Shown here piece by piece: positions 22,024-43,152 of a DNA stretch of 64,000 bases. Under the pieces are notes generated by a model. That model was not told where the DNA came from. It worked only from the letters and a program-made list of their open reading frames with translations, and searched no databases. This stretch comes from Clostridia bacterium (GTDB taxonomy: Bacteria > Bacillota > Clostridia > UBA1381): contig JAZQKZ010000031.1 in the NCBI GenBank assembly GCA_045542415.1, forward strand, positions 1-64,000, in the 5' to 3' direction. Both the position numbers and the translations under genes were made by a program. The first letter of the stretch is position 1; every line of letters starts with the position of its first letter.

Positions 22024-22273
22024 TCAGGCACACAGATTACGTCAGCTTCAATCAGCAAACTTTGCTGCATATGACATGCTGCTTTATCTCGACACACACT
22101 CAAATGACAAAAAGGCATTTGAAATTTTTAAATCGCTGGTTGACAAAACCAACAGACTCAGACATGAATACGAAAAAGATTTTGGTTCTTTAACGCCGTT
22201 CAACAGTGCTTACAAGAGCGAATTTGACTGGCTGAACAATCCGTGGCCATGGGATAAGGAGGCGAGCGAATAA
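22016..22273 (+). CDS. cotJB: Spore coat protein CotJB
   Basis: Start at MDNQAHRLRQLQSANFAAYDMLLYLDTH with RBS GGAGGT. Overlaps the cotJA stop by 8 nt. Confidence 0.8.
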   Translation: MDNQAHRLRQLQSANFAAYDMLLYLDTHSNDKKAFEIFKSLVDKTNRLRHEYEKDFGSLTPFNSAYKSEFDWLNNPWPWDKEASE

Positions 22274-22851
22274 TGTTTGAATACAGCAAATTTCTTGAAT
22301 TTCCGGTAAAAGTAAAAAACAAAAACCCCCGCCTCGCAAACATTATCATCACACAATATGGTGGACCCAATGGCGAGCTCGGTGCATCATTGCGATATTT
22401 GTCCCAGCGCTACACCATGCCTGACGAGGTCACAAAAGGGTTGCTGACTGATATAGGTGTTGAAGAACTTGGTCACCTTGAAATTGTGGGAACACTCGTC
22501 AAACAGCTCAGTGGTGATGCCGCTCCAAAAGAATGGTTAGAGATGGGTTCCTGGGAATACTATGCCGACAACGGTGCAAGTGTTTTTCCGCAAAATTCAC
22601 AAGGAACGCCGTTTAACGCCGCATCTATTGCAGTCACCGGCGATCCGCTGACCAATTTATATGAAAATCTTGCAGCAGAACAGAAAGCGAGAGCAGTGTA
22701 TGATAACATCCTCCGCTTATCGGACGATCCCGATGTAAACGAGGTTATAAAGTTCTTGCGACAAAGGGAAATTGTACACTTTCAGCGCTTCGGTGAAGCC
22801 TTGAACAAACTTCAGGAAAAGACCATCCGAAAAGGCTGTAAGATGAAATAA
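22273..22851 (+). CDS. cotJC: Spore coat protein CotJC (manganese catalase family)
   Basis: 192 aa. Mn-catalase-like ferritin-fold motifs (ELGASLRYLSQRY, EELGHLEIVGTLV). TAATG overlap with cotJB. Confidence 0.85.
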   Translation: MFEYSKFLEFPVKVKNKNPRLANIIITQYGGPNGELGASLRYLSQRYTMPDEVTKGLLTDIGVEELGHLEIVGTLVKQLSGDAAPKEWLEMGSWEYYADNGASVFPQNSQGTPFNAASIAVTGDPLTNLYENLAAEQKARAVYDNILRLSDDPDVNEVIKFLRQREIVHFQRFGEALNKLQEKTIRKGCKMK

Positions 22852-22935
22852 TAACCCTGCTATAAGGCACTGCTGTCCATAGACGGCAGTGCTTTTACTT
22901 GTTTTTATTATCGCATATCACGGTGTCTTGCGAAG
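22789..22935 (+). repeat. Repeat family copy A: the genuine cotJC 3' end, terminator and ~30 nt downstream
   Basis: Copy A is homologous to the segments at 33171-33531, 37676-38074 and 39286-39495. Confidence 0.8.
22867..22905 (+). terminator. Rho-independent terminator of cotJ operon
   Basis: Stem GCACTGCTGTC/GACGGCAGTGC, loop CATA, then TTTTACTTGTTTTT. Confidence 0.7.
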
Positions 22936-23147
22936 AATATTCAGATATTCCATAATTATAAAGATAAGGAACAGGACAGAAATAATTAAAATTTATACAG
23001 GTTAATATTTAAATATTGTTATTATTCAGAAAATTTGACACTGAAATTATAGAAGGGATCTGTGATATAATAGTATATAATTGTAAATAGCTGAAAGCAT
23101 TTACGCTGAAGGAGGAATTTTATATAAAAAAACAAATTGCAGTTTTT

Positions 23148-26100
23148 TTGGCAGTGGCTACAATAAGCACTGCTATACCATCGGCTTTGGCATGGACTAC
23201 CTCGCGCGAAGCACCGCCGGAGATTACAGATAAGGATTATATGTTTCCGTCATTTTCAAATGGAGAAACGCTGCTGGATAAGCAGCAGGGACGGCTCCCG
23301 GCAATGGGCTGGAACAGCTGGAATCCGTTTGGAACAGGAAATACAGAGGAGCTTACAAGGGCGCAGGCGGATAAGATTGTTGAGCTGGGATTGGATAAGC
23401 TTGGCTACCAATATGTAGTGCTTGACGTCGGATGTTACAGTGATAATCGTGACAGCGACGGCTATCTTACAAATAATCAGCAGAAATTCCAGAGCGGAAT
23501 ACAGGCAATGTCAGATTATCTTCACGACAAAGGACTTAAATTCGGAATGTATAATGATATCGGAATTTATCATTGTGCAAGCAGAATAATAGGTACTGCC
23601 GGTTATGAGGATCTTGATGCGGAAAAGTATGTGGAGTGGGGTGTTGACTATCTTAAAGTAGATAACTGTGAATATCTGTGGGATAACGCAACCGGAACCG
23701 GCGAGGCTGCGACTAAATATACATATGCACCCGCAATCCGAAGCATTACAGTTTCGGGTAACGAGCTTCAAACTACTTTAAATGCAGTGAATGACGGACT
23801 CCTTACCGGTGACGGCGCACGCAAGGATATCAGCGGTGATTTTGTAAATTATATAGGTACAAAGGACGGAATGAATATAGGTGTATCCCCTATCGGCGAT
23901 ATGTGGAGTGAGCTGGAATTTACGGTCAATGCTCCTTCGGAAGGTCAATACCAATTAACGGTCAACTATGCCTCCGGCGAGCAGACCGGTACCGGACGCT
24001 GGCTCCAGATAGCGGTCGGCGATGTTGAGAATGAAACGAGATATATGGACGAACTGCTTCCGGAGAGCGGTGGCATAGATGTATTCTGTGATAGTGCTCC
24101 GATTACAGTGACGCTTGAAGAGGGCGAAAACACCATCCGCCTGATGAATCACAGAAGACAGGAAAATACTCTTAATTCCTATGCTGCGTTATTTGAGTCT
24201 ATGAAAAAGTACGGAGGAGATGATTATGATTTTGTTCTTTCACTCTGTGAATGGGGAAAGACACAGCCTCAGAACTGGGGCTATAAAGTCGGCAATTCAT
24301 GGCGTATTCTCAACGATATAACCTTCAAGGTAGGTATAGGTGGAAGTGCTGTATGGAGTTCAAATAATACATCGAGTATTACATCGCAGTATAACAAAGC
24401 TGTTATCATGGATGAATTCTCAGGTCTTGACAAGGGCTGGAACGACCCGGATATGATGGTTATAGGCATGAACGGAATTACACCTACTATGGGTAAAACA
24501 CATATGTCAATGTGGTGTATGATGAACGCTCCGCTTATGCTCGGAATGGATTTAAGAAGCGTTGAAGCGGGCGATGATGTATATAATATCATTTCAAATG
24601 CCGATGTGATTGCACTCAATCAGGACACACTTGGCGTTCAGGCAAAGAGAATATACAGCTCAATTTTAAGCTCAGCACCTGATACTACATATGTCCAGGA
24701 CATAAACCGTGTAGATATTCTCGCAAAGCCGCTTTCAAACGGTGATGTTGCTCTTTCGTTTATTAATGTTTCCTCATCCTCAAACAGAGATACTCATACT
24801 GTAAGTGTTGATGATATTATATCGTATATAGGACACAAAATGGTTGATGCAGACAGCTTCGGGAATGCACAGGCATATGTTCTGACAGATCTCTGGAGCG
24901 GTGAAAAGAGCGTAAATACAAGTGGCAGCTTTTCAGTAAGCGAAATTGAAGGTTGTGACAGTATCACGGTAAGAGTAAGCCCGATTGGCAGCGAAGACGA
25001 CGAAAAAGACGCTCTCAAGGCAATAATAGAGGCTGCGGAGACTGAAATAGCATCAAATTCAGAAAAGCCTGTTTCGTTTGCGGACGAAATTCTGCAAGGA
25101 GCTGTTAATGAAGCGAATTCTGTACTTAACTCAGGCGGAAGCTGTCTTGATGAGGCAAAAAAGCTTCAGTCTGCAATTGAAGAATACCGCGAGGTGTACG
25201 GAATCTATTCTGCCCTCGGCACAGAAATTGATACTGTAAAAGATATGACAGGTAATTCGGGTATATACAATAAAGATTCAGCGTGGATGACATTCAACGC
25301 GGAATACGAAAAGGCGCATACAGTATATAATAATCCCGAGTCATTCGCAGACATAGAAAGTGCGATTGTCGGACTCAGAACAGCGGCAGCAAGCTTGAAC
25401 TACAATGTGGATGCAGCGTTTAATCCTATAGCATGGTATGTTTTTAACGATACATCTTCTGACACAGTAAAGGATGTTTCCGGCTACAACAGAGACGCAC
25501 AGCTTGTAAATGACGGTGCAAAAATACCGTCGATAGGTACATTGAGTCTTAACGCGAACGGTGAAAATAACGGATATGTTCAGCTGCCGGCGGGTATCCT
25601 GTCTAATGCGGAGGAGTTTACATTCAGTGCATGGGTAAATATTAAAGAGCATCAGACATGGGGACGTTTGTTTGACTTCGGCATGTCAAGCAATAACGGA
25701 TATATGTTCCTGTCTCCATATTCGGGAAGCGGTGTTTTACAGTATGCAATAACACCGACAAGCAATGGCGGCGAGCAGAGAGTCGTAGCAGATACTACCA
25801 TTGCCGTGGGCGAATGGCTCAATATCACTGCAGTACAAAGCGGAACAACGCTTACGATATATGTAAACGGTGAGCCTGCTACATCGGGTACTGTTACTAA
25901 CACACCTGCTCAATGTATAAAAGAAGCAATAAATTCCTACATAGGCAAATCACAGTGGAATGACAGATATCTTTCAGGCGAAATAAAGGATGTAAGAATA
26001 TACGATAAGGCATTAAGCGAGAATCAGCTTTACGCTATGCTTAACGGAGGCTCTACACTTTCGCTTACCGCAAAAGACAGTGCCGGCTGTACGGTTGTAA

Positions 26101-26939
26101 ATGAGACCGAGGGCAGTATGACGGCTGTACTCTATGTCGCAGAATATGATGAAAACGGTGCACTTTGCAATGTAATGAAAAGCACTGTTGAGCTTAGTAA
26201 TCCGGGAGAATGCGGAAGTACGGTTATAGATATAAGCGATATGAACACAGTGGGACATACGGTAAAGGCATTTTTATGGAATGCGGAAGACAATTCTCCG
26301 ATTACCGATGCAATGTCAGCTGTAATTAAAAAAGATCCTGTGTGGACCGTTAAAAATGCATCACCCGATAATATGACAGTAAACTCGACAACTAATCTTA
26401 CTATTATTACAGAAAGAGGAGACGTGTGGAACACAGCTGACGGTAACGGTACCATCAAGAATATGTATCTCATGCCCGTTCCTCAGGACAGCAAGGATAA
26501 TTTCACAGCCGAGGTCAAGATACACTTTAAGCCGGATGAAATCTACCAGCGTGCCGCACTTATCGCATACGCCGGAGACGGAAATAACGTATCTGTAATG
26601 CGACGCTATCATAACGGCATGGGCGGAAATGCGTTTATGACGACAATGAATTTGAACGGACGTGCGAGCGATGAGAGCGTATATACTCCGGACAGCCACG
26701 GCGAAGAGTGTCTGCTGAGGCTTGAAAAGAACGGAAGTAGCTTCAACGCCGCCTTCAGTGTGGATGACGGAGCTACATGGGAGCCGCTTGAAACACGAAT
26801 TCAGGAGGTGCTTGCCGCGTCGGACAATCTGTTTATAGGCTTATATGCTTCAAACGGAGAACAGAACGCAACTTCAGTTCCGGTAACATTTGAAAACTTT
26901 AAATTTAACGGAGAGGTTATAGAATTTGATGCAGAATAA
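23148..26939 (+). CDS. Secreted multidomain alpha-galactosidase (GH27) with inserted/appended carbohydrate-binding and LamG-like domains
   Basis: 1263 aa. GH27 catalytic motifs (LPAMGWNSWNPFG, YLKVDNC, CEWG). CBM35-like YASG block. LamG-like region (TFSAWVNIKEH...DVRIYDKALSE). Start uncertain: the track uses TTG at 23148, the RBS AAGGAGG lies at 23109 and the in-frame upstream sequence also looks signal-peptide-like. Confidence 0.8.
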   Translation: MAVATISTAIPSALAWTTSREAPPEITDKDYMFPSFSNGETLLDKQQGRLPAMGWNSWNPFGTGNTEELTRAQADKIVELGLDKLGYQYVVLDVGCYSDNRDSDGYLTNNQQKFQSGIQAMSDYLHDKGLKFGMYNDIGIYHCASRIIGTAGYEDLDAEKYVEWGVDYLKVDNCEYLWDNATGTGEAATKYTYAPAIRSITVSGNELQTTLNAVNDGLLTGDGARKDISGDFVNYIGTKDGMNIGVSPIGDMWSELEFTVNAPSEGQYQLTVNYASGEQTGTGRWLQIAVGDVENETRYMDELLPESGGIDVFCDSAPITVTLEEGENTIRLMNHRRQENTLNSYAALFESMKKYGGDDYDFVLSLCEWGKTQPQNWGYKVGNSWRILNDITFKVGIGGSAVWSSNNTSSITSQYNKAVIMDEFSGLDKGWNDPDMMVIGMNGITPTMGKTHMSMWCMMNAPLMLGMDLRSVEAGDDVYNIISNADVIALNQDTLGVQAKRIYSSILSSAPDTTYVQDINRVDILAKPLSNGDVALSFINVSSSSNRDTHTVSVDDIISYIGHKMVDADSFGNAQAYVLTDLWSGEKSVNTSGSFSVSEIEGCDSITVRVSPIGSEDDEKDALKAIIEAAETEIASNSEKPVSFADEILQGAVNEANSVLNSGGSCLDEAKKLQSAIEEYREVYGIYSALGTEIDTVKDMTGNSGIYNKDSAWMTFNAEYEKAHTVYNNPESFADIESAIVGLRTAAASLNYNVDAAFNPIAWYVFNDTSSDTVKDVSGYNRDAQLVNDGAKIPSIGTLSLNANGENNGYVQLPAGILSNAEEFTFSAWVNIKEHQTWGRLFDFGMSSNNGYMFLSPYSGSGVLQYAITPTSNGGEQRVVADTTIAVGEWLNITAVQSGTTLTIYVNGEPATSGTVTNTPAQCIKEAINSYIGKSQWNDRYLSGEIKDVRIYDKALSENQLYAMLNGGSTLSLTAKDSAGCTVVNETEGSMTAVLYVAEYDENGALCNVMKSTVELSNPGECGSTVIDISDMNTVGHTVKAFLWNAEDNSPITDAMSAVIKKDPVWTVKNASPDNMTVNSTTNLTIITERGDVWNTADGNGTIKNMYLMPVPQDSKDNFTAEVKIHFKPDEIYQRAALIAYAGDGNNVSVMRRYHNGMGGNAFMTTMNLNGRASDESVYTPDSHGEECLLRLEKNGSSFNAAFSVDDGATWEPLETRIQEVLAASDNLFIGLYASNGEQNATSVPVTFENFKFNGEVIEFDAE

Positions 26940-27876
26940 TTTAAAGAGAATTTTTTTCACGATTATAGCAACTGTACTGATTTTCAGTACAGTTGCTTTC
27001 GCCCATACTCCATTTAACGATATATCGGGGCACTGGGCACAGAAATATATTGAGCAGCTCTACGACAGAGGAATAGTAAACGGAACGCCGGACGGTGCGT
27101 TTAATCCCGAAGATAATATAACGACAGCGGAATTTATATCAATGCTGCTTCGTGATAAATACGGGTACATAGAGCCTACCGGCAACCATTGGGCATCGGG
27201 CTATATGGATTATGCATACAACAGCAATATGATAGATGCGCAGGAAAAAAACGTGCCCGACGAGCCGTTATTACGCAGATTTGCCGCGCGGATTGTCCAT
27301 GAATTGCTTTTGAATGTGTATGTGGAAAAGGACGAGGATGATATTTCAGTCGCAGAGCAGCTCCTGGATTTATATGACTGCCCATCGTGCGTTATGCATG
27401 TGTCGCAGGTGTATGTCAAGGGCATTATGGGCGGATATGACGATTCCAGGTTCCATCAGACAGATTATATGACGAGAGCACAAGCCGCTACCATTGTCAT
27501 GCGTGTTTTGGATAAGTCCATGCGTGTTGTGCCGGACATGGCAGAAAAACACACTCCGACGGTCGAAACCATAACGCTTGAGGATGCGGCGGAGCTGGTA
27601 AAATCCACCGGAGCAATCATACTTGATGTGCGGACAGCCGAAAAACATGCAAGCGGCTGTATAGAGGGCAGTATAAATATCAGTGCAGATATTATAATGA
27701 ACGATTTATCTGTATTTGATTATGATAAAGCCGTGACAGTTATAGTGCACTGTCAAAGCGGTGCAAATAGTGCTGCCGTGTGCACCAAGCTCAAAGATGC
27801 GGGATATACTAATGTCTATAATCTCGGCGGAGTGACGGATTTTGATGAAGCAAACAGGATTATACACGTTTTATAA
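26926..27876 (+). CDS. Cell-surface protein with N-terminal SLH repeats and C-terminal rhodanese domain
   Basis: Signal peptide. SLH-like repeats (FNDISGHWAQKYIEQLYDRGIVNG..., YMTRAQAATIVMRVL). Rhodanese active-site loop VIVHCQSGANSA. Start overlaps the GH27 stop. Confidence 0.7.
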   Translation: MMQNNLKRIFFTIIATVLIFSTVAFAHTPFNDISGHWAQKYIEQLYDRGIVNGTPDGAFNPEDNITTAEFISMLLRDKYGYIEPTGNHWASGYMDYAYNSNMIDAQEKNVPDEPLLRRFAARIVHELLLNVYVEKDEDDISVAEQLLDLYDCPSCVMHVSQVYVKGIMGGYDDSRFHQTDYMTRAQAATIVMRVLDKSMRVVPDMAEKHTPTVETITLEDAAELVKSTGAIILDVRTAEKHASGCIEGSINISADIIMNDLSVFDYDKAVTVIVHCQSGANSAAVCTKLKDAGYTNVYNLGGVTDFDEANRIIHVL

Positions 27877-27906
27877 AGACGATTATAAAGATCGGAGGGG
27901 TAATAA

Positions 27907-30900
27907 ATGAGTATAAAAAAATTAGCGGCAGCAGTCTGTGCACTGTCCATTGTATGTTCAAGTATGAGCAATGTCGCGTTGCAGGTCAGTGCTGAAACTG
28001 AACACGATATTCAGGTAACGGCAGACGAAGTTAAGTCTGTTGCAACGCTTGACGAGCTTAACGCAGCGCTGTCAGGCGGCGGAAACTATGAGGTCGGAGC
28101 TGATATTGGTGTAAACAACACCGGTATCAGAGGCAATACTGTAATTGACGGAGCAGGACATACCCTGACCTGCATTAATTTTGACAACAATGCTATGATT
28201 TATCAGAATGATGCGGTGGAAACGGAATTTAAGAATGTTGTGTTTAAAGGATGCGCAAAAGGCGATGTTGGTATATGGGAAGGCAACGGCTCAATTACAA
28301 TTACAGATTCAACAATCGAGAATTTTGCGGTAAATTCCGGACGCTGTGCGGCAGTGGCGTTAGGCGGCGGAAGACTGACGCTGAATAATGTAAAATTTAA
28401 GGATAACAGTCAGTACGATATATGTATAGCAGGCAGCGGCGAGGTTAATATCGGAACCACAACGGAGCTTGCAAAGATGAGATTACAGTCAAATACCTGT
28501 ACATTAAATATCGGCACTGACTGGCAGGGCTCGTTTGAAATTACTATTGATTCGCCGGAGGCGAGAATGCTTGGCACTGTTGCCGAGGGTGCAGATATTT
28601 CAAATATAACTGTAACCAATGAGGGTTTTTATCTTGAAAATAAAAACGGACTTCTAAATATTGTGCAGGAGGCCGGAAGCGGTGAGGATGATTTTATTCC
28701 GACATTGACCGTAGATATGACCGACGAGAAGCATCCTATACTGCACGGCAGCGCGGGCTTCTTATATGGTATCTCAAACGAGGGAGTTCCGAATGTTAAT
28801 ACAATCACTCCGCTCAAGCCAAAGGTGCTTGCGACTAAGGGCGCGCTCGGTACGGAGCATCCATATGGCGACGCTTTGGACGTAGCCGAAGAGTTTTTTG
28901 AAGCCGGCGGCGAGCAGGTTATGATGTATAATTCCAATTATTACGGAGTAATCGGTGTTACGGCGACTGCAGAGGATTATGCTGAGGTATTAAGGACAAT
29001 AATAGCGCCGTATGTCGCAGAGTGGAAGGATAATATGCGCGAGAAATATCCCGACATAGACGAAAGAATTATATATATTCCGATAAATGAAGGTACTCCG
29101 ATTCAATTGGCAAGCGGTGAGTATAATTTCAACGAGGCATGGAAGTTGTACTACGAAGCCATTATAGAGGGCGAACGCGAATACTACGAAAAGAACGGAA
29201 AATATCCTCAGGAAACTTACGAAAAGACGGCGTATCTTGCGGGACCAAATGAGGCAATAGCGCGAAACTATGCTTGGATGGAGGAGCTTATTGACTTCTG
29301 CAACGAAAACGACTGTATGCCTGATATTGTGACCTGGCACGAGTTGAATGTGGCGAATTTAAACACGCTGGCACGCAGCGCAGCAGAATACAGAGATATA
29401 TGTGAAAAGCGCGGTCTGGAACCGAAGCAGGTTGTTATAAATGAATATGCTGATGAGGCGGACTGCGGCGTACCGGGCAGACTTGTCAACTGGATAGCGA
29501 GGCTGGAGGATGCCGAGCTATATGGCTGTCTGCCGTTCTGGCATCAGGCGAACAACTTAAATGACCTTGCAGCCGACGATAACAGCGGTAACGGTGCGTG
29601 GTGGGCGTTTAAGTGGTACGGAGATATGTCGGGTATGACTCTCAATGTTAAATCGAATACTTGGTTCGCTCAGCTTTACGGCTGCGCAACGATAGATGAC
29701 ACGAAAAAGATTGCAAATGTGCTTGCCGGAGGAGTAGATGGCAATGCGAAAATTGTGCTTGACAACATAGACGAAACAAAAACCTTCAAAAACGCCGAAA
29801 AGGTGCATATAAAGGTTGAAGCGGCATATTTCTCTGCATACCACGGGGCGGTATATGAGCCGGCAGTTGTGTCTGAAGGTACATATGCGGTTAAAGACGG
29901 AAAGGTTGAAGTTGAATTAAGCGATATGCTGTTCTCTACCGCGTATAATCTGACAATTACAGAGGCAACGGACGAGGTTTCTTTGCCGATGTACGGAGCG
30001 TGGAGAGCAGTATATGAGGCGGAAGACGCCGAACTGCTTGGAAATGCAGCGATAGAACATATAGGAGACTTAGGCATTCCACCATATTATCTTTCCGCAG
30101 AATACAGGGTCAGGAATCTTAACAGTGAGGGTAACGGTGTAAGATATACCGTTGATGTGCCTATTGACGGAAACTATAAACTGGAATTTTTATACGCCAA
30201 CGGCGTAGGTCTTGACAGGGGCAATGTTAATCACGCACCAAAAAATCTCAGTATGAGCATAACTATTGATGACGGTGATGAGGAAACACTGCTGCTGCCG
30301 AACACATTGTTCTTCAGTATGGAAGGTGTGGCGGAAAAATATGTTGATTTGACTGCCGGAACTCATACAATTACACTGATGTGTGACGGTAAAGAAAAGG
30401 AATATTATCCGGGCGAAAATATTGACCCGCAACTGTATCAGGATGCTATGTATGTCACATATTCAGGCAGTAAGGGTGCAGAGCGTAAGATTAATAAAAC
30501 ATATGAAGCGGAAACTGCTGACTTTAACAAGCTCGGTGACACAGAAGTGACTAATGTAAACACACAAAGCACTGCCAATGGCTATAGCGGAAGCGGATAT
30601 GTAAAAGGACTTAACGAATCACCGGTAGAAAACGGCGGCGGAATAAGATGGATAGTCGCGGTAGAAAAGAGTGGTACATATAATCTGCGTTTTAGATATA
30701 TGACATCCGAAAACGGAAATCTGAGGATTTATAAAGACAATACAAATCTTACATTTACGAATTTACTTACCTCTGTGCCGATTGCCGATACAGGCAATAT
30801 ATGGGCGAATGTTTCAGTGCCGGTATATCTTATGAAGGGTATTAACCTGATTGATATTGATACGGATATTGACGCTGCCGTTGACTATATGCAGGTAACG

Positions 30901-33003: not shown

Positions 33004-33170
33004 ACCAGAAAGAGCGTGCCGAATCGTATAGGGCGATATTATTAAAAGATATGCTAATCGCTTAAATGACGTGAACTACGAAGTATAAAATGATTCTTTG
33101 GAATTTCGTTGCGCGTATATGAAGCGGAATGCTGATTTTAATAAAAGTCATTAAAAATCCAATCAATAGC

Positions 33171-33531
33171 AAAACCTCACAATCCCAGACAACCCCTGCC
33201 TTCCCTCCCCTTTCCTTAACTTACTAATTTCGGTGAGGTCTTGAACAAACTCCAGGAAAAGACTATGCGTAAGGGCTGTAAGATGAAATAATAACCCTAC
33301 AAAAAGGCACTGCTCGCCCAATGGACGGCAGTGCCTTTGCTTGTTTTTATTATCGTATATCACGGTGTCCGGTTGAAGTCAATATTTCATAAAGGAAATT
33401 TTTGCGGCAAAGCAGTGTGTTGAACAATACTGTACGTTATTTGGAACAGTAAGGCGAATATTGACCTAAAATAAAGTTTTTTCTTCGTAAGGTGTATTGA
33501 ATATTATCGGAATAAATGATAGAATGATATT
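33171..33531 (+). repeat. Repeat family copy B (361 bp), containing a cotJC 3' fragment (..LNKLQEKTMRKGCKMK*) plus terminator
   Basis: Near-identical to copy C. Central ~130 nt is ~80% identical to cotJC end 22789-22935. The fragment has an in-frame TAA upstream, so it is non-coding. Confidence 0.85.
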
Positions 33532-33612
33532 GTAAATACAAGGGTGTCAAAAAACAAAGACCGTTTTGTAGTACATTTAATGTGATAGAGTGTAATAAAG
33601 AGGTGATTAATT

Positions 33613-34287
33613 ATGGGAAGAGTATTAACGGAAAATCAAGAATTATTGAAGGGATACTTATTGGAAGTGGGATGTAGCAAAATTGCAGTTTTGGTAATCA
33701 TTTTAGATGTTTGGGAGCCGGAAGAAACGTTAGATATGCTGCAGTTTTGCAAAGAAAATCATGGTACGGCAACAGAAAAAGATTTTGTTGCAGCGGCAAA
33801 AGAAATTTCTGTTAAGAAAGAAAAGCGAACCATTGAAGATGTTTGGAATATTGAGGACGGCTATGCTTTTTTAAGGGCCATGAATTTATACTTATCAATC
33901 AAGTGTAACTATGGTGATGAAATTAAAAATTTGAACGAGGAAGAAAAGACTTTTTTCTGTGTGCAGATTTTTGAAGAATATATACTTGATGGAAGTTTTA
34001 CAGGCTTTTTCTTTAATTCATGCGGAGATTTTGCAAACGAAATAGTTCCGGCATTGAAAAGGGTTGGGGCAATAAAAATGGCAGAAATTTGTGAAAAAGC
34101 ATTTAGCATATATGGTGATAAAGTCCCTATGGTCAGAGATGAAAGAAAAGAGATTTATAATTCAATGGGCGAAATAATGGAGAGAGTTGTTGATGAATGT
34201 CAAAATAGACTTTCGGATTGCAATAATAATCTTCCAGAATTATGTTATCAATTTATATTAAGCAACAAGGAATCTTTTTCGAAATAA
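33613..34287 (+). CDS. Hypothetical protein with C-terminal DUF4375/DMP19-like region (cassette g1)
   Basis: 224 aa. RBS AAAGAGGTG. C-terminal FFCVQIFEEYILDGSFTGFFFNSCGDF resembles the GGFxQFFxN block of DMP19/DUF4375 proteins, a family sometimes seen as immunity proteins. Confidence 0.55.
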   Translation: MGRVLTENQELLKGYLLEVGCSKIAVLVIILDVWEPEETLDMLQFCKENHGTATEKDFVAAAKEISVKKEKRTIEDVWNIEDGYAFLRAMNLYLSIKCNYGDEIKNLNEEEKTFFCVQIFEEYILDGSFTGFFFNSCGDFANEIVPALKRVGAIKMAEICEKAFSIYGDKVPMVRDERKEIYNSMGEIMERVVDECQNRLSDCNNNLPELCYQFILSNKESFSK

Positions 34288-34410
34288 ATCAGTTATTTTT
34301 TTGTATTAACTAAACACGAGTACCAAAGATTGGCGAAAGATGCCAAAAAAAGAAGCATAATATTTATGTGACATTATTATCCCTATAATCATAGATAAAG
34401 GAGTGATATT

Positions 34411-35412
34411 ATGAAATTATTTGATGATTTTGAAGCAGTTAAATTTCCCGAAGAAGATATGATTTTTATAACTGATAATGGATATCTCTATTATATTTAT
34501 AATTCTAAATATGAATATTGGAGAAAGCATCGTAATGCAGGAAACGACCATATCACAGTTAACAAATATCAAGATGTCAGCAAAGAAGAACTAATGAGTG
34601 CAATGCAAGGTATATACCCTGAAAAAGAAACTGACTTTATGAGATTGTGTAATCCTGAGCAATTATGTATTAGAGATATGTTGGATTTACTTAAAGAGGA
34701 TTATTCGAACTATATGTCAGATTACTCACTCTATCATACTGTTCATAGATTTTTATTAAAGTCTAACATATGCCATAAGTCTTTTTTAGAAACAAAAAAA
34801 CTTTTTGACAATGCCATTGCTCTTCAACAAGATAACAGGCAAGTTGTCGTTCAAATTAAAGAACTTTGTATTGCTATTATTGGTAGGGATATTTTCAAAG
34901 AAGAAATCGGCATAGTTGATGGACATGATTGTTCATCGTATTTTTGGATAATGCCGGTGAGAGTTATTGATTATTCAAATACGAATAATTGGGACAATGT
35001 TGCAGAAATGAGAAGTGCGGAGATTTCAATTGAGGAAGATGATGTTGGTCGATACCTTACGCCTTTTCTCTATAAGCACTATGATGATGAGCTTGAAGCT
35101 AATAAAAAGAGAGTTGAAGATTGTTGGATAGATAATGAAGGTAACGAGCAGATATCGGTTGTAAGCGGTTTTGAATGGTATTTGACACATAATTTCTACA
35201 CATTTAATTCTATGATGGATATTCTAAAAGATATTGGCGATACGATTGACGCTTTATCTTCGGGAAGAGAAAATGAATTTACAGTTAAACTAAAAGATAG
35301 CGAGGTTGAGCTCGTTATTGATTTTTACAATAGATTTATATACAGGATGGAATATATGATGAAAGTTGGTAAAGAAAAGGGCTATGATTTAATTTCTTTT
35401 ATGGGACCTTAA
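34411..35412 (+). CDS. Hypothetical protein (cassette g2), no recognisable domain
   Basis: 333 aa acidic, W/Y/F-rich. RBS AAAGGAG. Confidence 0.55.
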   Translation: MKLFDDFEAVKFPEEDMIFITDNGYLYYIYNSKYEYWRKHRNAGNDHITVNKYQDVSKEELMSAMQGIYPEKETDFMRLCNPEQLCIRDMLDLLKEDYSNYMSDYSLYHTVHRFLLKSNICHKSFLETKKLFDNAIALQQDNRQVVVQIKELCIAIIGRDIFKEEIGIVDGHDCSSYFWIMPVRVIDYSNTNNWDNVAEMRSAEISIEEDDVGRYLTPFLYKHYDDELEANKKRVEDCWIDNEGNEQISVVSGFEWYLTHNFYTFNSMMDILKDIGDTIDALSSGRENEFTVKLKDSEVELVIDFYNRFIYRMEYMMKVGKEKGYDLISFMGP

Positions 35413-35499
35413 AAAAGAGTTGAATCTAACCCTTATATCCCGCATAGTAAACACATCGTAAGATGTCGAAAATATTTTGAGAAAGGATGTTGAATCATA

Positions 35500-35640
35500 T
35501 CGTAATGCAATTTTAAATACTGCAAGGGTTCTCGCTCAAAACGGCGTTACGGAAAACTCCTTTTATTGTATAAAAATAAATGAAAAGGACAGGACACTTA
35601 AGCTGTCAGACAGGCAGGTAAAATATTAATAATCGGAAAA
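35500..35640 (+). pseudogene. Start-less gene remnant (..DVENILRKDVESYRNAILNTARVLAQNGVTENSFYCIKINEKDRTLKLSDRQVKY*)
   Basis: 56 sense codons bounded upstream by an in-frame TAA and lacking a start; reads like the C-terminus of a decayed gene. Confidence 0.3.
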
Positions 35641-35730
35641 GGAAGTGTTCAGAGATGTTTTGCGATGAAATAATAGAAAAAGTTTATATTATAGCTCCAG
35701 ACTATGAAGTATAATGTGAGGTGATAAATC

Positions 35731-36372
35731 TTGAACAAAACAGAGTATTTACTTGAACTTTGTCATAAACCGGAGAGTAATATAGCCGAAATAGAACAAT
35801 ATCTCAATGAAAGTGGTTTTAATCCGGAAGAAACTACTCATCTGTTATTCCGTTTCCTGGAGGAGTATGCTTATCACTTTGAATGTCCCAGACCGTTGCC
35901 GGATGACCTTATTGAACCTAAATTAATAGAAGTATTTAAGGTCTTTTCAAAATATGGATTGCAACCTAATCTGATTATTAACGAATTAAATATCATGCAG
36001 GTAATTCGTCATATTTATTATGGCAATACAGCTCCGGTTTTAGTGCGAATGTTGCTGGAGCATGGCTTAGATCCAAATCTGGAAGTTGACGGAGAAACGA
36101 TATTTGAGGAGCTTGATTTCGATATTGTGTTTGATGTTGTGGAGTTGGAAAATAAGGCTCTGTTTAATATTGAATTTAAAGTCTGGCTGGTTATGATGGG
36201 CTACGGAGGAACTATTCAGGGCGGAAGATGTCCGGTAGAACTAAAAAACGGGTATGAGATTGAGATGTTTAAGCGTTTCGAAAACTTTGACTATGAGATA
36301 GAATTTCTTAAAAAGGACTGGATAATGCACATCTTTAACAAGGAGAGCGGCGAAGAGGTTGCGATATTGTAG
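35731..36372 (+). CDS. Hypothetical protein (cassette g3), TTG start in ORF track
   Basis: 213 aa, acidic. No motif recognised. Confidence 0.45.
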   Translation: MNKTEYLLELCHKPESNIAEIEQYLNESGFNPEETTHLLFRFLEEYAYHFECPRPLPDDLIEPKLIEVFKVFSKYGLQPNLIINELNIMQVIRHIYYGNTAPVLVRMLLEHGLDPNLEVDGETIFEELDFDIVFDVVELENKALFNIEFKVWLVMMGYGGTIQGGRCPVELKNGYEIEMFKRFENFDYEIEFLKKDWIMHIFNKESGEEVAIL

Positions 36373-36492
36373 TTTGGCGAAAATATAATGCGAGGTGGCA
36401 AAACCAAAGATGAAAAAACAATAGCGATAATGATGGGGATTCAGGGTAGCGGTATAGCTACATATTTGAAGTTGCAAAGGAGTATTTATATT

Positions 36493-36969
36493 ATGGTTTA
36501 TGGAGCAATAAATAGAAAAGGCGAAAAATGCTATACACATCTGAAAAAAGTTTTTGATGCAATCGGAAATAAACAAAAAGATTATAATTGGTTAATAACA
36601 GATTGCGAATGTTATCCCAATGATAGCACGCTAAGAGAACTATTTAATAAAGAGTACTGTTTCATTTCCGGAGAAGAATTGACAGAGATTGTTTCAAAAG
36701 AAGACTTTCTATGGATTTGGGCAGTTTTGTCGGGATTTGACAAAAAGGTGTCTATAGAGCAAATCTTAAAACATGAATTGCCTTATGCAGATGGGTATGC
36801 CGGTTTTTGGAATAATCCATTATCACTCCAACACCCATTATCTTGTATAGAGATTGTTCCCTGGGATAGTTCGCTGGTTTTGCTTTTGAGCAAGGATACG
36901 GAAGTAGTTGAAAAATTTATTAAATCATTTCCATATAGTGAAAAACTGGAAGACTATAATAGTAAATGA
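36493..36969 (+). CDS. Hypothetical protein (cassette g4; paralogue of 38744-39220)
   Basis: Start MVYGAINRKGEK after RBS AAGGAG. ~90% identical to g4' at protein level. Confidence 0.6.
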   Translation: MVYGAINRKGEKCYTHLKKVFDAIGNKQKDYNWLITDCECYPNDSTLRELFNKEYCFISGEELTEIVSKEDFLWIWAVLSGFDKKVSIEQILKHELPYADGYAGFWNNPLSLQHPLSCIEIVPWDSSLVLLLSKDTEVVEKFIKSFPYSEKLEDYNSK

Positions 36970-37032
36970 TTTTTTGCCTGAATTGACACGAGCATATAAT
37001 CAGTCAAATTTATCAAAAGAGAGGAGTTGTAT

Positions 37033-37618
37033 TATGACAGCACAAATTACGGACATATATTATTATAAAACAAGACAATATAACATTGTGGCGATGAGCG
37101 ACAAACCGGATTTCCATCCAAGAAACTTGGGCTTGGATGTGTCATGTAATAACACCGCTTGTTGGAGAGGGTATTGGTGTGAATATGAAATATCAGAAGA
37201 TATCATTTTCCTGGAAAAGCTGTTTGTTAATACTGTGGACGGGAAATATCCGGATATAAACGGCATAAGAGTTAACAAAAAGTCAGATGAATATAGGGGG
37301 CACAGAGCGTATGAAGGTTTATCAATGGCTATAAATTATACAGGCAAAATACTTCTTGGCGACGAACGGATTCTCGAATATGGTATTAATGCAGGACATC
37401 CAAGTCCGTGGGAATACAAGATATTAAAGGAATTTGTTTTTGAAAAGAGTAAATTAACTAAAATTAATGATTACAGTTCAATTGCAAAAGATATAAGAGA
37501 AACAGCAGAAAACGAGCTTAGGGATGTGGATGAATTCAAACAATTTTATATTCTTGATAAAATAGCAAAAGAAAAGCTCCCTATAGAATATAATATTCAT
37601 AGAGCAAGTTGGGGATGA
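37033..37618 (+). CDS. Hypothetical protein (cassette g5; N-terminus reused in repeat copies C/D)
   Basis: Start MTAQITDIYYYK after RBS AGAGGAG. 195 aa. Confidence 0.55.
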
Positions 37619-37675
37619 TTCAGTAAACATCAAGTATGGGATAAAGTAAATCTCTAAAGAGACTTAAGGAAACAG

Positions 37676-38074
37676 TGCAAATCACTATTTACTAAAATTA
37701 TTGATAAAATAAACAAAACCTCACAAACCCAGACAAATCCTGCCCTAACAGCCCTTTCCTTAAATTACTAATTTCGGTGAAACCTTGAACAAACTCCAGG
37801 AAAAGACTATGCGTAAGGGCTGTAAGATGAAATAATAACCCTACAAAAAGGCACTGCTCGCCCAATGGACGGCAGTGCCTTTGCTTGTTTTTATTGTCGC
37901 ATATCACGGTGTCCGGTTGAAGTCAATATTTCATAAGGGTAATTTTTGCGGCAAAACACTGTGTTGAACAATACTGTACGTTATTTGGAACAGTAAGGCG
38001 AATATTGACCTAAAATAAAGATTTTCTTCGTAAGGTGTATTGAATATTATCGGAATAAATGATAGAATGATATT
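37676..38074 (+). repeat. Repeat family copy C (g5-start remnant, ~60 nt, cotJC 3' fragment, terminator and ~200 nt)
   Basis: 37715-38074 nearly identical to 33171-33531. 37676-37714 matches the 39286-39330 segment of copy D (acagtgcaaatcactattt...ttattgataaaataaac). Confidence 0.85.
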
Positions 38075-38108
38075 AACATAGCATTACGAGGATAGAAGGT
38101 GCAAAATC

Positions 38109-38318
38109 TTGGATAACGTAAAGAGAGAATTATTCAATCAAATAGAAAAGTTAAATCTTGAAGAAGACTGGGCAAGAGGCACACTCAAAGAAGCTCCGTT
38201 TTGGAGAGACGGAATGACACCGGAAGAGTATGATGAAGAAAACATATATTTGCAAAGACATTGGGACGAGTATATGAATAATACTTATGTTCCTCTTTGG
38301 AAGCAGAAGGAGCTTTGA
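38109..38318 (+). CDS. Hypothetical small acidic protein (cassette g6, 69 aa)
   Basis: ORF with RBS-like GGATAGAAGGTG upstream. Confidence 0.4.
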   Translation: MDNVKRELFNQIEKLNLEEDWARGTLKEAPFWRDGMTPEEYDEENIYLQRHWDEYMNNTYVPLWKQKEL

Positions 38319-38319
38319 T

Positions 38320-38685
38320 ATGGTTACATTTAAATTAGTAGAAGAAAACAGTCATAGTCTTATTTATCATTATTTCCCTAATGGAGAAGAAAACAGTGAA
38401 TCTGGCGTTATAGTCGTAGATAAAGAAAAAAATCAAATATATGTAAAAGACTTATCGCCAAAGGATTTTATGAGAATAGAAACTATAGCAGAGCAAAATG
38501 AAATGAGAGATTCCGTGAATGAGATGCGAAAAATAGAAGGACTGGGTGAACTTAGCGAGGAAGAATGGCCGATTGCCACAGAAGATATTGTCATTAGATT
38601 TTTTGCGGATCATGCCATGAATAAAATTTGGAATGCATATGTCAAGGGTGAAGTTTTGCAAAGCGGTACAGTGATGTGGTATTAG
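38320..38685 (+). CDS. Hypothetical protein (cassette g7, 121 aa)
   Basis: Start MVTFKLVEEN after RBS AGAAGGAG. ORF track extends to 38287. Confidence 0.5.
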   Translation: MVTFKLVEENSHSLIYHYFPNGEENSESGVIVVDKEKNQIYVKDLSPKDFMRIETIAEQNEMRDSVNEMRKIEGLGELSEEEWPIATEDIVIRFFADHAMNKIWNAYVKGEVLQSGTVMWY

Positions 38686-38743
38686 CAAATTTGCGAAGAA
38701 TATTCAGATATTACACAAGCGAGATTTTGAAAGGGGCAGTATC

Positions 38744-39220
38744 ATGGTTTATGGAGCAATTAATAAAAAAGGTGAAAAATACTATACGCATCTGAAAAAA
38801 GTTTTTGATGCAATTGGAAATAAACAAAAAGATTATAATTGGTTAATAACAGATTGCGAATGTTGTCCCAATGATAGCACTTTAAGAGAACTATTTGATA
38901 AAGAGTACTGTTTCATTTCCGGAGAAGAATTGACGGATATTGTTTCAAAAGAAGACTTCCAATGGATTTGGGCAGTTTTATCCGGGTTTGACAAAAAGGT
39001 ATCTATAGAGCAAATCTTGAAACATGAATTACCTTATGCAAATGGATATACCGGATTTTGGAATAATCCATTATCGCTGCAACACCCATTATCTTGTATA
39101 GAGATTGTTCCTTGGGATAGTTCGCTGGTTTTGCTTTTGAGCGAGGATAAGGAAGTAGTTGAAAAATTTATTAAATCATTTCCGCATAGTGAAAAACTGG
39201 AAGACTATAATAGCAAATGA
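38744..39220 (+). CDS. Hypothetical protein (cassette g4'; paralogue of 36493-36969)
   Basis: 158 aa, near-identical to g4. Confidence 0.6.
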   Translation: MVYGAINKKGEKYYTHLKKVFDAIGNKQKDYNWLITDCECCPNDSTLRELFDKEYCFISGEELTDIVSKEDFQWIWAVLSGFDKKVSIEQILKHELPYANGYTGFWNNPLSLQHPLSCIEIVPWDSSLVLLLSEDKEVVEKFIKSFPHSEKLEDYNSK

Positions 39221-39284
39221 TTTTGTGCCTGAATTGACACGAGCATATAATCAGTCAAATTTATCAAAAGAGAGAAGTTTTATT

Positions 39285-39386
39285 ATGACAGCACAAATCA
39301 CTATTTCTGGAATTATTGATAAAATAAACAAAGCCCAACAACCCCAGGCAAACACCGGCTTCCCTCCCCCATCCTTAAATTACTAA
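39285..39386 (+). pseudogene. Truncated g5 paralogue (MTAQITISGIIDKINKA...) running into repeat copy D
   Basis: First 6 codons identical to g5, then the reading frame continues into repeat sequence and stops after 33 codons. Confidence 0.5.
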
Positions 39387-39495
39387 TTTCGGTGAAGCCT
39401 TGAACAAACTCCAGGAAAAGACCATGCGTAAGGGCTGTAAGATAAAATAATAACCCTGCTATAAGGCACTGCTCGCCCAATGGACGGCAGTGTCT
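39286..39495 (+). repeat. Repeat family copy D (truncated, mosaic of copy A-like and copy B/C-like segments)
   Basis: ttcggtgaagccttgaacaaac identical to true cotJC; middle ccctgctataaggcactgct is A-like; cgcccaatggacggcagtg is B/C-like. Confidence 0.8.
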
Positions 39496-39653
39496 TTTTT
39501 CCGTTTCTTATAACGTAAAACTGTTAGGTTGATATAAACTATTGATGCCAAATAGTTTGGAATGTGAACAAATATATGTTGAAAAATCTTTTCTGGTATA
39601 GTATAATAAAAACAATAAAGAATTCCATTTTGATTTCAGGGAGGGATAATAAA

Positions 39654-42600
39654 ATGAATAAAAAGCTGATTTCGCTGGCATTGTCATTATCAATGCTTGG
39701 CATGTCAATCCCGTATTTTACAACAGCACAGGCCGCCGAACCTATTATAGCATTTCCGGGCGCAGAGGGTGCAGGTAAATATGCAACCGGCGGACGAGGC
39801 GGTACAGTGTATCATGTAACAAATCTTAACGACAGCGGTACAGGGTCTTTTCGTGACGCTGTTTCGAGAGGTAACAGGATTGTCGTATTTGATGTAGGCG
39901 GAACAATTGAGTTGAAATCAGACGTAAGCGTAGCCGGCAATATCACCATTGCCGGACAGACGGCACCCGGTGGAGGCGGTATAACGCTTCGTGGCGGCAA
40001 AATCGGTATGGCGGGCGATAATATTATTATCCGATTCATAAGCTCTCGTCCGGGTGAAAACGGGAGCAGTGAATGTGACGCATGGGGCGGAAGCAAGGGC
40101 TCGAACTCCATGATAGACCACTGCTCAATCGGTTGGGCAAATGACGAACAGTTTGGTCTGTATTCGGCAACACAGCAGACAATACAATATTCGCTCATAG
40201 GACCTGCAAACTGTATTTCATACCATTCAAAGGGCGCACATGGCTTTGGTGTTATGATGGGAGCAGGACACAACACATGGCATCATAATATGATTGCACA
40301 TAATATTTCACGAAATTACCGTGGTAAGGTTTCGGGAACAAATACTTTAGACTATGTAAATAACGTAATCTTTAACTGGGGCTATCAGACAGCGTACGGT
40401 ACCTTCGGACATGTAAACTATGTCGGAAATTATTTTAAGAAAGGACTCTCTACAAACGGAGGATACAGATACATAAGCATAAGCAGCGGTACTGCTCCGG
40501 AAAAATACAGATTCTATCTTACAGGCAACAAGATGGTTAATGCAGATGGCACAGACCACAACTCCGCCATGAACAGCGATAACTGGCAGGGTGTGGACTA
40601 TGGAAGTGCCGGATACACACAGTCGCATTACCAGATAACTTCACCGGTCAGAGTAAATGATGTCAACGGCAATGACGCATCGGTAGTTGCAAATGCACAG
40701 ACAGCGGATGAAGCCTTTGAAACAGTACTTGCATATGCAGGTGCCGGAATCCGTGCGGATCTACGTCCTGAAATTGACCGCCAGGTAATGGATGAAGCTC
40801 GCACAGGTAACGGTTATCTCACCGGAGGACGTGACTTCTCAACCCTCACCTCAAGCGATACAGCATTGAATGAAGCTATCGAGAAATATAATATCAAAGA
40901 AATGAATTATGACGAGTATTATCCGATACCGATTACTCAAAAAGAGATAATTGATTCAGATAATGACGGAATGAGCGACGACTGGGAATTAGCAAGGGGC
41001 TTAGACCCCTACACCAACGACGCAACACTTGATTATCTGGGACAGGGATATAACAACATTGAGTATTACATAAATGACCTTACGGTTGATTCGTTCCCGG
41101 AGGGTGTTGTAACGCTTTCTCCTGAAACGGTTGATTTGGGTGAAGATTTCGAGAAAGCAAAGGCAGATGCAGATGCAATTACTATTTCAACCACATTTGT
41201 TAAGACACCGGAAGATTTAATACTGCCCACACAGTCTGCCAACGGCTCTGTAATCACCTGGAGCAGTACATCAAGCGAGATTATCATAGAAAATAATCAG
41301 ATTGTGTCAGTTAATCGCCCATCATCAGTAAGTGCTGTAGTAACTTTAAGTGCCGGTATTACATACGGCGAATATACCCTAAAACGTGCTTTTTCAATAA
41401 CAGTTCCACCACTTCCGTATAAATTCGATTTTGGCAACGGAAGCGTCCAAAGCGGATTTACAGCTGTAAGTGCATCAACAACATATTCACCTGAGACGGG
41501 ATATGGTTTTGTCGGCACAGCACCAAGTGATATGGTACGCGCACCGGAAAATATCCCATCAGGATATGAAAACATGCATGAGGATCAGATTTTTGGCGAA
41601 ACACAATTCAAGGCGGAAATACCAAACGGAAAATATATAGTAGTCATTCATTACGGAAGCTGGAATACGAACTTTGGAACAAATTATACGGTAGAGGGTA
41701 TAAATTCAGGTAATCTTTCCGCCACAGCCGCGACAGAATATGTCACAGCTGTAGAGATAACGGACGGAATACTTGATTTAACTATTGCCAAGGGTTCAAA
41801 CTCATACGGAGGATATATAAACGGCCTGGAAATCCTGCCACCACCTGACCCGCAGTATCACTTTGACTTTGGCGATGGCACGATACAGGATGGATATGTC
41901 GGAGTCAGTGCTTCAACTGTATATTCACCTGCTACATGCTACGGCTTTGCAGATGCAGCGGCACAAACCTCAATGGAACGTGCTCCGGCGAATATTCCTT
42001 CAGGATATGAAAATCTGCACGCTGACCAGATAAGCGGAATAACATCCTTTAAATCAGATCTCCCGAACGGAAAATATATTGTAACCATTCATTATGGCAG
42101 CTGGAACACCGGCTTTGGCACAAGCTACAATATAGAGGGTGTAGAATCGGGCAATCTCGCATCAACCGATGCCGCACAGTATATCGCAAAGGTAGAAGTA
42201 ACGGACGGAATGCTCGATGTAGCAATAAATACGGGAGGCAACAAGTACGGAGGATATATAAACGGCATAGATATTATGCCTTTGCCTACACTCCCCTATC
42301 ATTTCGATTTCGGTGACGGAGCTGTTCAGACAGATTATTTTTCAGTAACCTCATCAACCATATACTCATCAGATACGGAATTTGGATTTGTAGATTCAGC
42401 CGTGCAGGAGGGAATGGCTCGTGCACCCGGTAATATTGCATCGGGATTCGAGGATTTATATAATGACCAGATACTTGGTGAAACGCAATTCAAAGCAGAT
42501 ATACCGAACGGAAAATATGACGTCATTATTCATTACGGAAGTTGGAACACAGGATTTGGAGTAAATTATACAATAGAGGGTGTATCCTCGGGCAATCTTA

Positions 42601-43056: not shown

Positions 43057-43152
43057 CTAAAAGGCGAATTTCGCGGGTATGTCCCCGATTTTGTGTAAGA
43101 CTTCACCACAACCGCCTTTCAATATTTCACAATCAATTGTGATTTTGAGCAT
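43057..43152 (-). pseudogene. Truncated copy of the Mu-F-like gene (MLKITIDCEILKGG then divergent, 31 aa)
   Basis: First 14 codons identical to those of 44028-44480, including the TCACAATCAATTGTGA palindrome. Confidence 0.5.

Follow-up and report, generated by a model that had tools for sequence, protein, structure and literature searches.

The stretch analysed here (the window, 64,000 nucleotides of contig JAZQKZ010000031.1 from a Clostridia bacterium) carries the cotJ operon, in which the intact gene cotJC, encoding a spore-coat protein of the manganese-catalase family, follows cotJA and cotJB (Table 1). The 3′ end of cotJC and its terminator recur three times downstream, so that, together with the end of the gene itself, four copies (A to D) are present, which separate the segments A-to-B, B-to-C and C-to-D from each other and from the chromosomal gene beyond D. 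This array and its probable relation to large serine recombinases (LSRs) that integrate into cotJC are the subject of the present analysis.

Structure of the four copies

The anatomy of the repeats was determined by repeat finding, gapped alignment and self-comparison with blastn. When three mismatches are allowed, a 23-nt probe from the core matches the window at 22801, 33241, 37785 and 39400 only, always on the plus strand and with 0.00 matches expected from 100 shuffles, which, together with the self-comparison, bears out the four direct copies on one strand described in the original prediction. The sequence shared by all copies opens at exactly TTCGGTGA (22789 in A, 33229 in B, 37773 in C and 39388 in D), corresponding to the codons for Phe-Gly-Glu of CotJC, and the common core comprises the final 21 codons of cotJC, the stop codon and the terminator hairpin. 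The core is 87-94% identical to the genuine end of cotJC, which exceeds the first estimate of about 80%. In blastn alignments A matches B over 141 nt (87.2%), C over 141 nt (87.9%) and D over 111 nt (90.1%), and C matches D over 211 nt (86.7%; 37672-37882 and 39288-39497). B and C, which had been described as nearly identical over about 360 bp, indeed align over 362 nt with 94.5% identity (33170-33531 and 37714-38074). This greater length reflects a left arm of 60-100 nt, which is not cotJC and is common to B, C and D, and a right arm of ~160 nt, which is common to B and C and closes in a promoter-like site. The homology of D to the other copies decays directly past the hairpin, in keeping with a position of D next to the native flank of the locus. 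A similarity of ~65% between the right flank of D and B and C was also considered, but the signal comes from the core part only and the flank itself is not convincingly homologous.

In B, C and D the cotJC tail is preceded by an in-frame TAA (P*LTNFGE.. or P*ITNFGE.., with the asterisk denoting the stop), confirming that these tails are non-coding relics. Their encoded sequences were thought to end uniformly in KGCKMK, but they differ by copy, since D reads KIK (..KGCKIK*), B has FGEV and C has FGET. Decay of complete cotJC paralogues was ruled out as a source of the relics, given that the left arms lack similarity to cotJC and that the boundary to the core is sharp. The terminator hairpins of all four copies have folding energies of -20 to -28 kcal/mol (z -3.4 to -5.8). 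A structured RNA was likewise ruled out, as no Rfam match with E<=1 was obtained over 32900-39800 and the hairpins are ordinary terminators. With regard to a dispersed or MITE-like repeat, copies in the window are confined to the region downstream of cotJC. No copy of the repeat unit was detected among ~90 related loci, in viral contigs or in Joint Genome Institute (JGI) metagenomes, and a 24-nt core had no match in the viral contigs or the JGI metagenomes.

Today, each unit would act as transcriptional punctuation, providing a strong terminator for the cotJ operon or for the preceding cassette, and the predicted promoter at the right end of B and C would drive the cargo genes that follow. The units are also potential substrates for RecA-type deletion or duplication, realistically mainly between B and C. 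The longest perfect block between these two copies is 112 nt, whereas all other pairs share 25-30 nt, with 29 nt for A and D; B-to-C could therefore plausibly be lost or duplicated, but the entire 16 kb would not be expected to disappear often. After recombination between copies cotJC would still be functional, since the relic tails encode almost the same amino acids as the genuine one. Thus, of the proposal that the direct repeats bracket deletable DNA, the variability of that DNA and the preservation of cotJC can be retained, but not a frequent loss of the entire island between A and D.

Integration into cotJC in related bacteria

For comparison, ~90 related loci from metagenome-assembled genomes (MAGs) of uncultured gut Clostridia were analysed, and the BLAST searches with the repeat covered more than 80 cotJC loci (locus numbers such as L021 refer to this set). 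Look-ups of CotJC and of a DUF2691 protein of the window by exact sequence gave no match. The nearest CotJC proteins are 86-94% identical to that of the window and include those of Candidatus Ornithomonoglobus. In these relatives the DNA has diverged too far for the repeat itself to be present, and even in the closest one (L081, 94% amino acid identity) the terminator and flank are unlike those of the window. The search of related genomes with the repeat unit, which the original prediction had proposed as a check, returned weak matches to the coding tail and a single match to the terminator, in L021. Arrays of cotJC tails like that of the window were absent from the relatives when each locus was compared with itself by BLAST.

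When the CotJC C-termini were tabulated, 12 loci from several lineages were seen to leave the family consensus right after HFQRFG(E/D). At the DNA level the break falls after TTCGGYGA, that is, at the point where the core of the window copies opens, and the DNA past the break shares a consensus among the interrupted relatives. An LSR gene is located 0.1-2 kb downstream of the break, on the opposite strand, in 9/9 loci with enough downstream sequence that were checked. In 7/7 loci tested with Pfam (L015, L021, L032, L034, L040, L048 and L067) the protein was recognized as an LSR of 506-531 aa with Resolvase, Recombinase and Zn_ribbon_recom domains, and tblastn identified it in two further loci (L013 and L085). 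A complete element of 6.7 kb is inserted into cotJC of L067, with attL at 2643 and attR at 9344. Its attR consists of the P arm, TTCGGCGA directly at the junction, the tail FGELLNIYQEKIHC* and a terminator, and is thus organized in the same way as copies B, C and D of the window; the cargo is non-phage. The record of L067 (CAVIFG010000032.1) is titled Escherichia coli, but its cotJC is of the Oscillospiraceae type, and it is most likely a mis-binned contig.

The kind of recombinase present bears on the possibility that the array was built up in tandem from tyrosine-integrase islands, each bringing its own substitute for the 3′ end of the target, as seen for e14 and phage 21 at icd. Such islands would account for a duplicated target 3′ end of as much as 110-140 nt, for the gene to the left of the first copy and for the native flank to the right of the last one, and there are known examples of such tandem arrays (PMC7192596). 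However, no tyrosine integrase was found in the island or in the cotJC insertions examined, all of which carry a serine recombinase, none was seen beside a cotJC-tail repeat among the ~90 loci, and the symmetry of the left arms described below fits an LSR attP, making this origin highly improbable.

The relatives display further insertion points in cotJC. A second hotspot lies at about residue 28-30 (YGGPNGE), where the 5′ part of the gene is missing at positions that are not contig edges (L024, L025, L028, L030, L031, L032, L033, L034, L040, L048, L057 and L085). A different, distantly related LSR is encoded just upstream on the same strand in seven of these loci (L025, L030, L033, L040, L048, L057 and L085), and L040, L048 and L085 harbor elements at both the YGGPNGE and the FGE site. 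At a third site, in L042 (6357-16648), a 9.7-kb element interrupts cotJC near residue 136 and encodes FtsK/SpoIIIE, Rep, an LSR with DUF4368, ParE/Phd toxin-antitoxin genes and two Cu_amine_oxidN1 proteins. In many of the MAGs (L002, L006, L026, L030, L035, L043, L055, L077 and others) the contig stops no more than a few hundred bases from cotJC, consistent with assemblies interrupted by repeated or mobile DNA at this locus. At the FGE site the truncated cotJC gains a short replacement tail from the P′ half-site itself (PILTNLRRILPY or PIHTNLRRFFPY), followed by an element-borne terminator, as in L021 (10524-10640), L085 (5560-5680, minus strand) and L089 (628-740), so that the interrupted gene may remain expressed with a new C-terminus instead of being simply inactivated.

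The attP sites of LSRs are imperfect inverted repeats around a central crossover (PMC5595907), and the left arms of the window copies can be compared with the element-side arms of the relatives in this light. The left arms close as TCCTTAA(A/C)TTACTAAT immediately before TTCGGTGA, and the reverse complement of the element-side arm of L021 reads CTCCTTAAATTAGTAAGGATTGGT followed, across the junction, by TCACCGAA, with similar sequences in L014, L048 and L085. With respect to the P′ arm of L021 (ACCAATCCTTACTAATTTAAGGAG), the window sequence TCCTTAAATTACTAA mirrors TCCTTAAATTAGTAA, the symmetry axis being the GA of TTCGGTGA. In a register-constrained mirror test, copy C and L021 share 17/30 identities, a value reached by 11/5000 composition-preserving shuffles. 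The cotJC-side arm of A, which served as a control, shows no P-type symmetry (p ~0.25-0.65). Furthermore, 15/20 positions of the window P arm match the P arm of the genuine attR of L067 in the same register. A direct similarity of the window left arm to P′ of L021 (CCTTACTAATTT) was noted as well, but the inverted symmetry of the half-sites accounts for it better. On the other side of the junction, the target-side arm of B, C and D corresponds to the displaced 3′ part of cotJC, namely 21 codons and the terminator, on the plus strand like the 5′ part of the gene. The window contains no attL, since cotJC is intact and no P′ arm follows TTCGGTGA at 22789.

These features suggest that B, C and D are probably attR-type junctions of LSR elements that integrated into cotJC at Phe-Gly-Glu, and that A is the intact attB-type end restored in the gene. 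This assignment follows from the half-site in the left arms, which mirrors the P′ arms of the relatives. The left arm of 60-100 nt, on which the reading as LSR junctions turns, had been left uninterpreted before. As the window has neither an attL nor a recombinase, the blocks between the copies would be stranded remnants beyond the reach of canonical LSR excision. The repeats had been ascribed to repeated homologous or illegitimate recombination at the end of cotJC, but their left boundary coincides with the LSR crossover and the left arm has the form of a P half-site.

Kinship and possible origin of the copies

The segments B-to-C and C-to-D are related to each other in more than their flanking repeats, with 93.4% identity between 36489-37050 and 38740-39301 (blastn), a duplication that takes in a DUF2691 gene together with the spacer downstream of it. 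Between this match and that at 37672-37882, C-to-D lacks 620 nt of B-to-C, including the gene g5 (37034-37618), and the 620-nt block is bounded by two imperfect direct repeats of 14 nt at 37037-37050 and 37672-37685 (ACAGCACAAATTAC and ACAGTGCAAATCAC). From these alignments, C-to-D is a deletion derivative of B-to-C, and the 14-nt repeats at the edges of g5 suggest that the block was deleted or inserted via short-homology recombination. This difference, the absence of g5 between the two short repeats, also explains the remnants of its first codons, MTAQIT, which had been reported from both C and D: the motif is intact in D, whereas C has TVQIT and lacks the ATG. Copy D had moreover been regarded as a mosaic of A-like and B/C-like parts. 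Such an assumption is not needed, as the single-nucleotide differences fit a simple tree in which D has the ancestral states, A carries ~7 private changes and B and C share four. A is set apart by ATC CGA AAA and by a loop shortened by 2 nt; in these features B, C and D agree with the outgroups L081 and L021.

A paralogous relationship of B-to-C and C-to-D would also be produced by plain tandem segmental duplication, in which one illegitimate junction into the middle of the cotJC tail was amplified by unequal crossover, with no site-specific recombinase involved. One founding junction would then suffice for the identical position of the three boundaries between left arm and core, and unequal crossover is required by the pathway proposed below for LSR elements as well. 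This explanation is nevertheless unlikely, because the junction would have had to fall exactly on the LSR crossover used in at least 12 relatives and next to a P-type half-site symmetry that is absent on the cotJC side. In addition, duplication predicts no extra core past the last unit, but D exists and has a different flank.

If B, C and D are attR-type junctions, their coexistence with an intact attB has to be accounted for, and canonical LSR reactions alone cannot yield attB and attR on one chromosome. A clue is offered by the elements of L021 and L085, in which a segment just inside P′ (ACCATACTAAAAGACAC, hairpin, CTTGTTTTTATTAT) is homologous to the post-stop and terminator segment of the window. 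Its continuation past the hairpin, CTTGTTTTTATTAT, is common to A, B and C but is missing from D, which diverges there. A two-step path, which we consider possible but hold only tentatively, would start from the premise that some elements of the LSR family bear such a terminator segment, homologous to that of cotJC, inside P′. In the first step, the terminator of the element and the native one would recombine by unequal crossover, which would duplicate the unit of element and attR. In the second, excision between attL and the nearest attR would restore cotJC, and the distal copies would keep an attR only. Later, these copies would lose the end carrying the recombinase and diverge by deletion, as in the loss of g5.

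A pathway of a different kind would be a living capture platform similar to those of staphylococcal cassette chromosome (SCC) elements or integrons, in which recombinase-less cassettes with P-B′ sites, each equipped with its own promoter and terminator, are moved in trans. The agent would be an LSR encoded elsewhere that acts on non-canonical pairs (attR x attR, attR x attB), and circles would be re-inserted behind a cotJC that was never disrupted. The layout does resemble composite SCC islands, with an intact target, an att-core direct repeat for each cassette and some cassettes lacking a recombinase. Ccr recombinases have been reported to act on non-canonical att pairs (PMC5595907), and a promoter and a terminator are present in each cassette. 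However, no recombinase is encoded within the 64-kb window, and the LSR elements of the relatives all show a canonical attL with a P′ arm and no tail-bearing site. Moreover, the 5-13% divergence of B, C and D and the derivation of C-to-D by deletion indicate decay rather than turnover, so that we regard a platform operating in trans as improbable.

Several points weigh against the interpretation of B, C and D as attR-type junctions and against the two-step path. The case for the P arm consists of ~15 nt of mirror symmetry and one distant complete element. No relative sharing the repeat at the DNA level was found among the related loci searched, and neither attP nor attR of the closest, L021-type elements was recovered: a search for free attP or additional attR sites with the P′ sequence returned just two more attL junctions, and a walk along the L021-type element did not reach attR, the flanking amidotransferase being cargo of the element. 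The origin pathway is a conjecture, since canonical LSR reactions cannot produce attB plus attR, and it leaves the right end of an L021-type element unseen. Nor does it explain the host-like GC content of A-to-B, which, together with the ordinary carbohydrate-active genes of this segment, is odd for the remnant of an element. Finally, the functional copy A is the most derived one, which the path does not explain and which would also be unexpected for duplication in place followed by decay of pseudo-copies.

Two L021-type relatives, L090 (3300-3900) and L093 (1-820), end at a 3′ fragment of a tRNA (..GGTTCAAATCCCGTCCCCGCAACCA) and not at a cotJC tail. They carry a KAP NTPase, an amidoligase with a glutamine amidotransferase, two small resolvases, a D5-type primase and an LSR, and the tRNA border suggests a composite with, or an insertion next to, a tRNA-targeting element.

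Gene content and comparison with known systems

The positions of the genes, copies and predicted sites are compiled in Table 1. In composition, B-to-D has a GC content of 0.30-0.36 compared with 0.42-0.47 in the surrounding DNA and is foreign-like, and the 16-kb island is therefore not the single unit that had been assumed, with A-to-B being host-like. The gene content of B-to-D is made up of small cytoplasmic open reading frames (ORFs), including two DUF2691 proteins that are 93% identical in amino acid sequence (Pfam E-values of 5e-8 and 3e-6). Searches of the cargo ORFs against PHROGs and NCBIfam gave no matches, and no recombinase or integrase was detected in the window by tblastn for LSRs or by the Pfam scan of the annotated ORFs.

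Table 1. Genes, repeat copies and predicted sites in the cotJC region of the window
Feature	Position	Strand	Evidence or remarks
cotJA	21832-22023	+	Pfam CotJA 3.5e-12; cotJ operon, 5′ of cotJC
cotJB	21974-22273	+	Pfam CotJB 1.1e-24; cotJ operon, 5′ of cotJC
cotJC, intact, 192 aa	22273-22851	+	Pfam Mn_catalase 1.8e-51; full-length match to relatives
Putative attB-type site inside cotJC, centred on TTCGGTGA (22789-22796)	22765-22820, outer limits approximate	+	
Copy A	22789-22927	+	cotJC tail 22789-22851; hairpin 22864-22895; ~32 nt past hairpin common to B and C
Segment A-to-B	22928-33149	+	Three large secreted carbohydrate-active genes (Pfam); chromosome-like GC 0.42-0.47
A-to-B, GH27/melibiase-LamG	23148-26939	+	Pfam
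A-to-B, SLH-rhodanese	26926-27876	+	Pfam
A-to-B, LamG/CBM35	27907-33003	+	Pfam
Copy B, left arm (not cotJC)	33150-33228	+	Predicted P-type half-site CCTTAACTTACTAAT from 33214 into crossover 33229-33236
Copy B, core	33229-33369	+	Tail relic FGEVLNKLQEKTMRKGCKMK*; hairpin 33304-33337
Copy B, right arm	33370-33531	+	Promoter-like TTGAAT-17-(TG)TAGAAT 33497-33525 (promoter scan); 94.5% identical to C
Segment B-to-C, cargo	33613-37618	+	GC 0.30-0.36
B-to-C, DMP19-like	33613-34287	+	Pfam 9.2e-18
B-to-C, ORFs without family	34411-35412; 35731-36372	+	No match in Pfam, PHROGs or NCBIfam
B-to-C, DUF2691	36388-36969	+	Pfam
B-to-C, g5	37034-37618	+	
Copy C, left arm	37672-37772	+	Predicted P-type half-site CCTTAAATTACTAAT from 37758
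Copy C, core	37773-37913	+	Tail relic; hairpin 37848-37881
Copy C, right arm	37914-38074	+	Same promoter-like site as B, 38040-38068
Segment C-to-D, cargo	38109-39220	+	ORFs 38109-38318 and 38287-38685; DUF2691 paralogue 38744-39220
Copy D, left arm	39285-39387	+	MTAQIT start codon (ATG) 39285; predicted P-type half-site CCTTAAATTACTAAT from 39373
Copy D, core	39388-39497	+	Tail relic ..KGCKIK*; hairpin 39463-39496
Next chromosomal gene, AGA-YXIM galactose-binding domains, 1159 aa	ORF 39564-43043	+	Pfam; GC back to ~0.44
Promoter-like TTGAAA-17-TATAAT	39579-39607	+	Promoter scan

The cargo is relevant to the likeness with polymorphic-toxin and orphan-cassette loci that had been drawn in the original prediction, according to which the copies would have been left behind by homologous or illegitimate recombination at the end of cotJC. 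Direct repeats are able to mediate swaps of this type, and the DMP19-like and DUF2691 proteins are small cytoplasmic proteins of a kind frequent in immunity-gene islands. However, the Pfam scan revealed no toxin domain in any neighbouring ORF, the repeats are not derived from a toxin gene, and they contain an LSR P half-site in addition to the cotJC tail and thus more than cotJC alone. Furthermore, the contexts of the nearest DUF2691 homologues (L086 and L087) have just DUF2691 in common with the window and are not linked to such a repeat. An origin of this sort is consequently very unlikely.

Other repeats in the window are of a different nature. An exact 56-nt repeat (43111-43166 and 44439-44494) and a second one of 28 nt (43195-43222 and, approximately, 44748-44775) lie in the same low-GC patch (0.33) and seem to be duplications of the 5′ regions of small ORFs on the minus strand that lack a family match (e.g. 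44028-44480). Three tandem units of ~441 nt, 67-72% identical, at 41466-42721 correspond to the three AGA-YXIM galactose-binding domains of the 1159-aa ORF. Short degenerate repeats with periods of 12-54 nt at 12738-13540, within a minus-strand ORF of 1120 aa (10539-13901), probably represent a low-complexity linker.

With three insertion points among the relatives and some genes doubly occupied, cotJC of uncultured gut Clostridia emerges as a heavily used landing site for serine recombinases. The window shows the aftermath of stranding behind a restored gene, in which cargo is retained together with element-derived terminators and promoters. For annotation, repeats of the cotJC 3′ end should be taken as marks of old integration junctions, and the natural attB and the half-sites for diverse LSRs on one target could be useful for the discovery of integrase tools. 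In the literature, cotJC is named as a gene into which phages or transposons frequently integrate (bioRxiv 10.1101/2021.11.22.469490, citing Abe et al. 2013).

Gene-intervening LSR elements in sporulation genes have been described, as have non-canonical att pairs in SCC elements (PMC5595907). By their sequence, the elements of the relatives belong with this group, which includes skin (sigK), SPbeta (spsM), vfbin (spoVFB), vrin (spoVR) and gin (gerE). As in these systems, the target is a mother-cell sporulation gene and the LSR gene lies next to attL. The crossover is short and lies within the coding sequence, between half-sites in inverted repeat, as it does in elements of the skin, SPbeta and gin type, and gin has non-phage cargo, as does the element of L067. 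The window differs from elements of this type in that cotJC is intact and is followed by three serial attR-type junctions, while the recombinase, a recombination directionality factor and attL are missing, leaving nothing that could be excised during sporulation.

Orphan toxin/immunity arrays also contain direct repeats of gene fragments in front of small cassettes, and some cargo proteins of the window belong to families frequent in immunity islands, but the window has no full-length toxin, and its repeats do not stem from a toxin gene and are bounded by a recombinase crossover site. At icd, direct repeats of the target 3′ end separate foreign blocks in e14 and phage 21 as they do in the window (PMC7192596). 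These elements use tyrosine integrases and an attP with a replacement 3′ end, whereas the canonical attP of an LSR is devoid of a target-gene tail. More generally, integrative elements can form tandem arrays at one attB, and recombination within such arrays creates hybrids (PMC7192596).

In architecture, the closest parallels are with SCC and SCCmec at the 3′ end of rlmH (orfX) in staphylococci, where large-family serine recombinases are used, a conserved gene is kept intact, and a series of cassettes is bounded by att-core direct repeats, with some units (pseudo-SCC) lacking a recombinase; for SCC, non-canonical att pairs have been invoked in array formation (PMC5595907). The likeness is confined to this architecture, as the window has no ccr homologue, no rlmH and no sign of current mobility, and its repeats, which include terminator and promoter, measure 110-360 nt as compared with ~15-20 nt in SCC. 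Rather than a new recombination system or mechanism, the array is probably a fossil of cotJC-targeting LSR elements, which are of a known kind.

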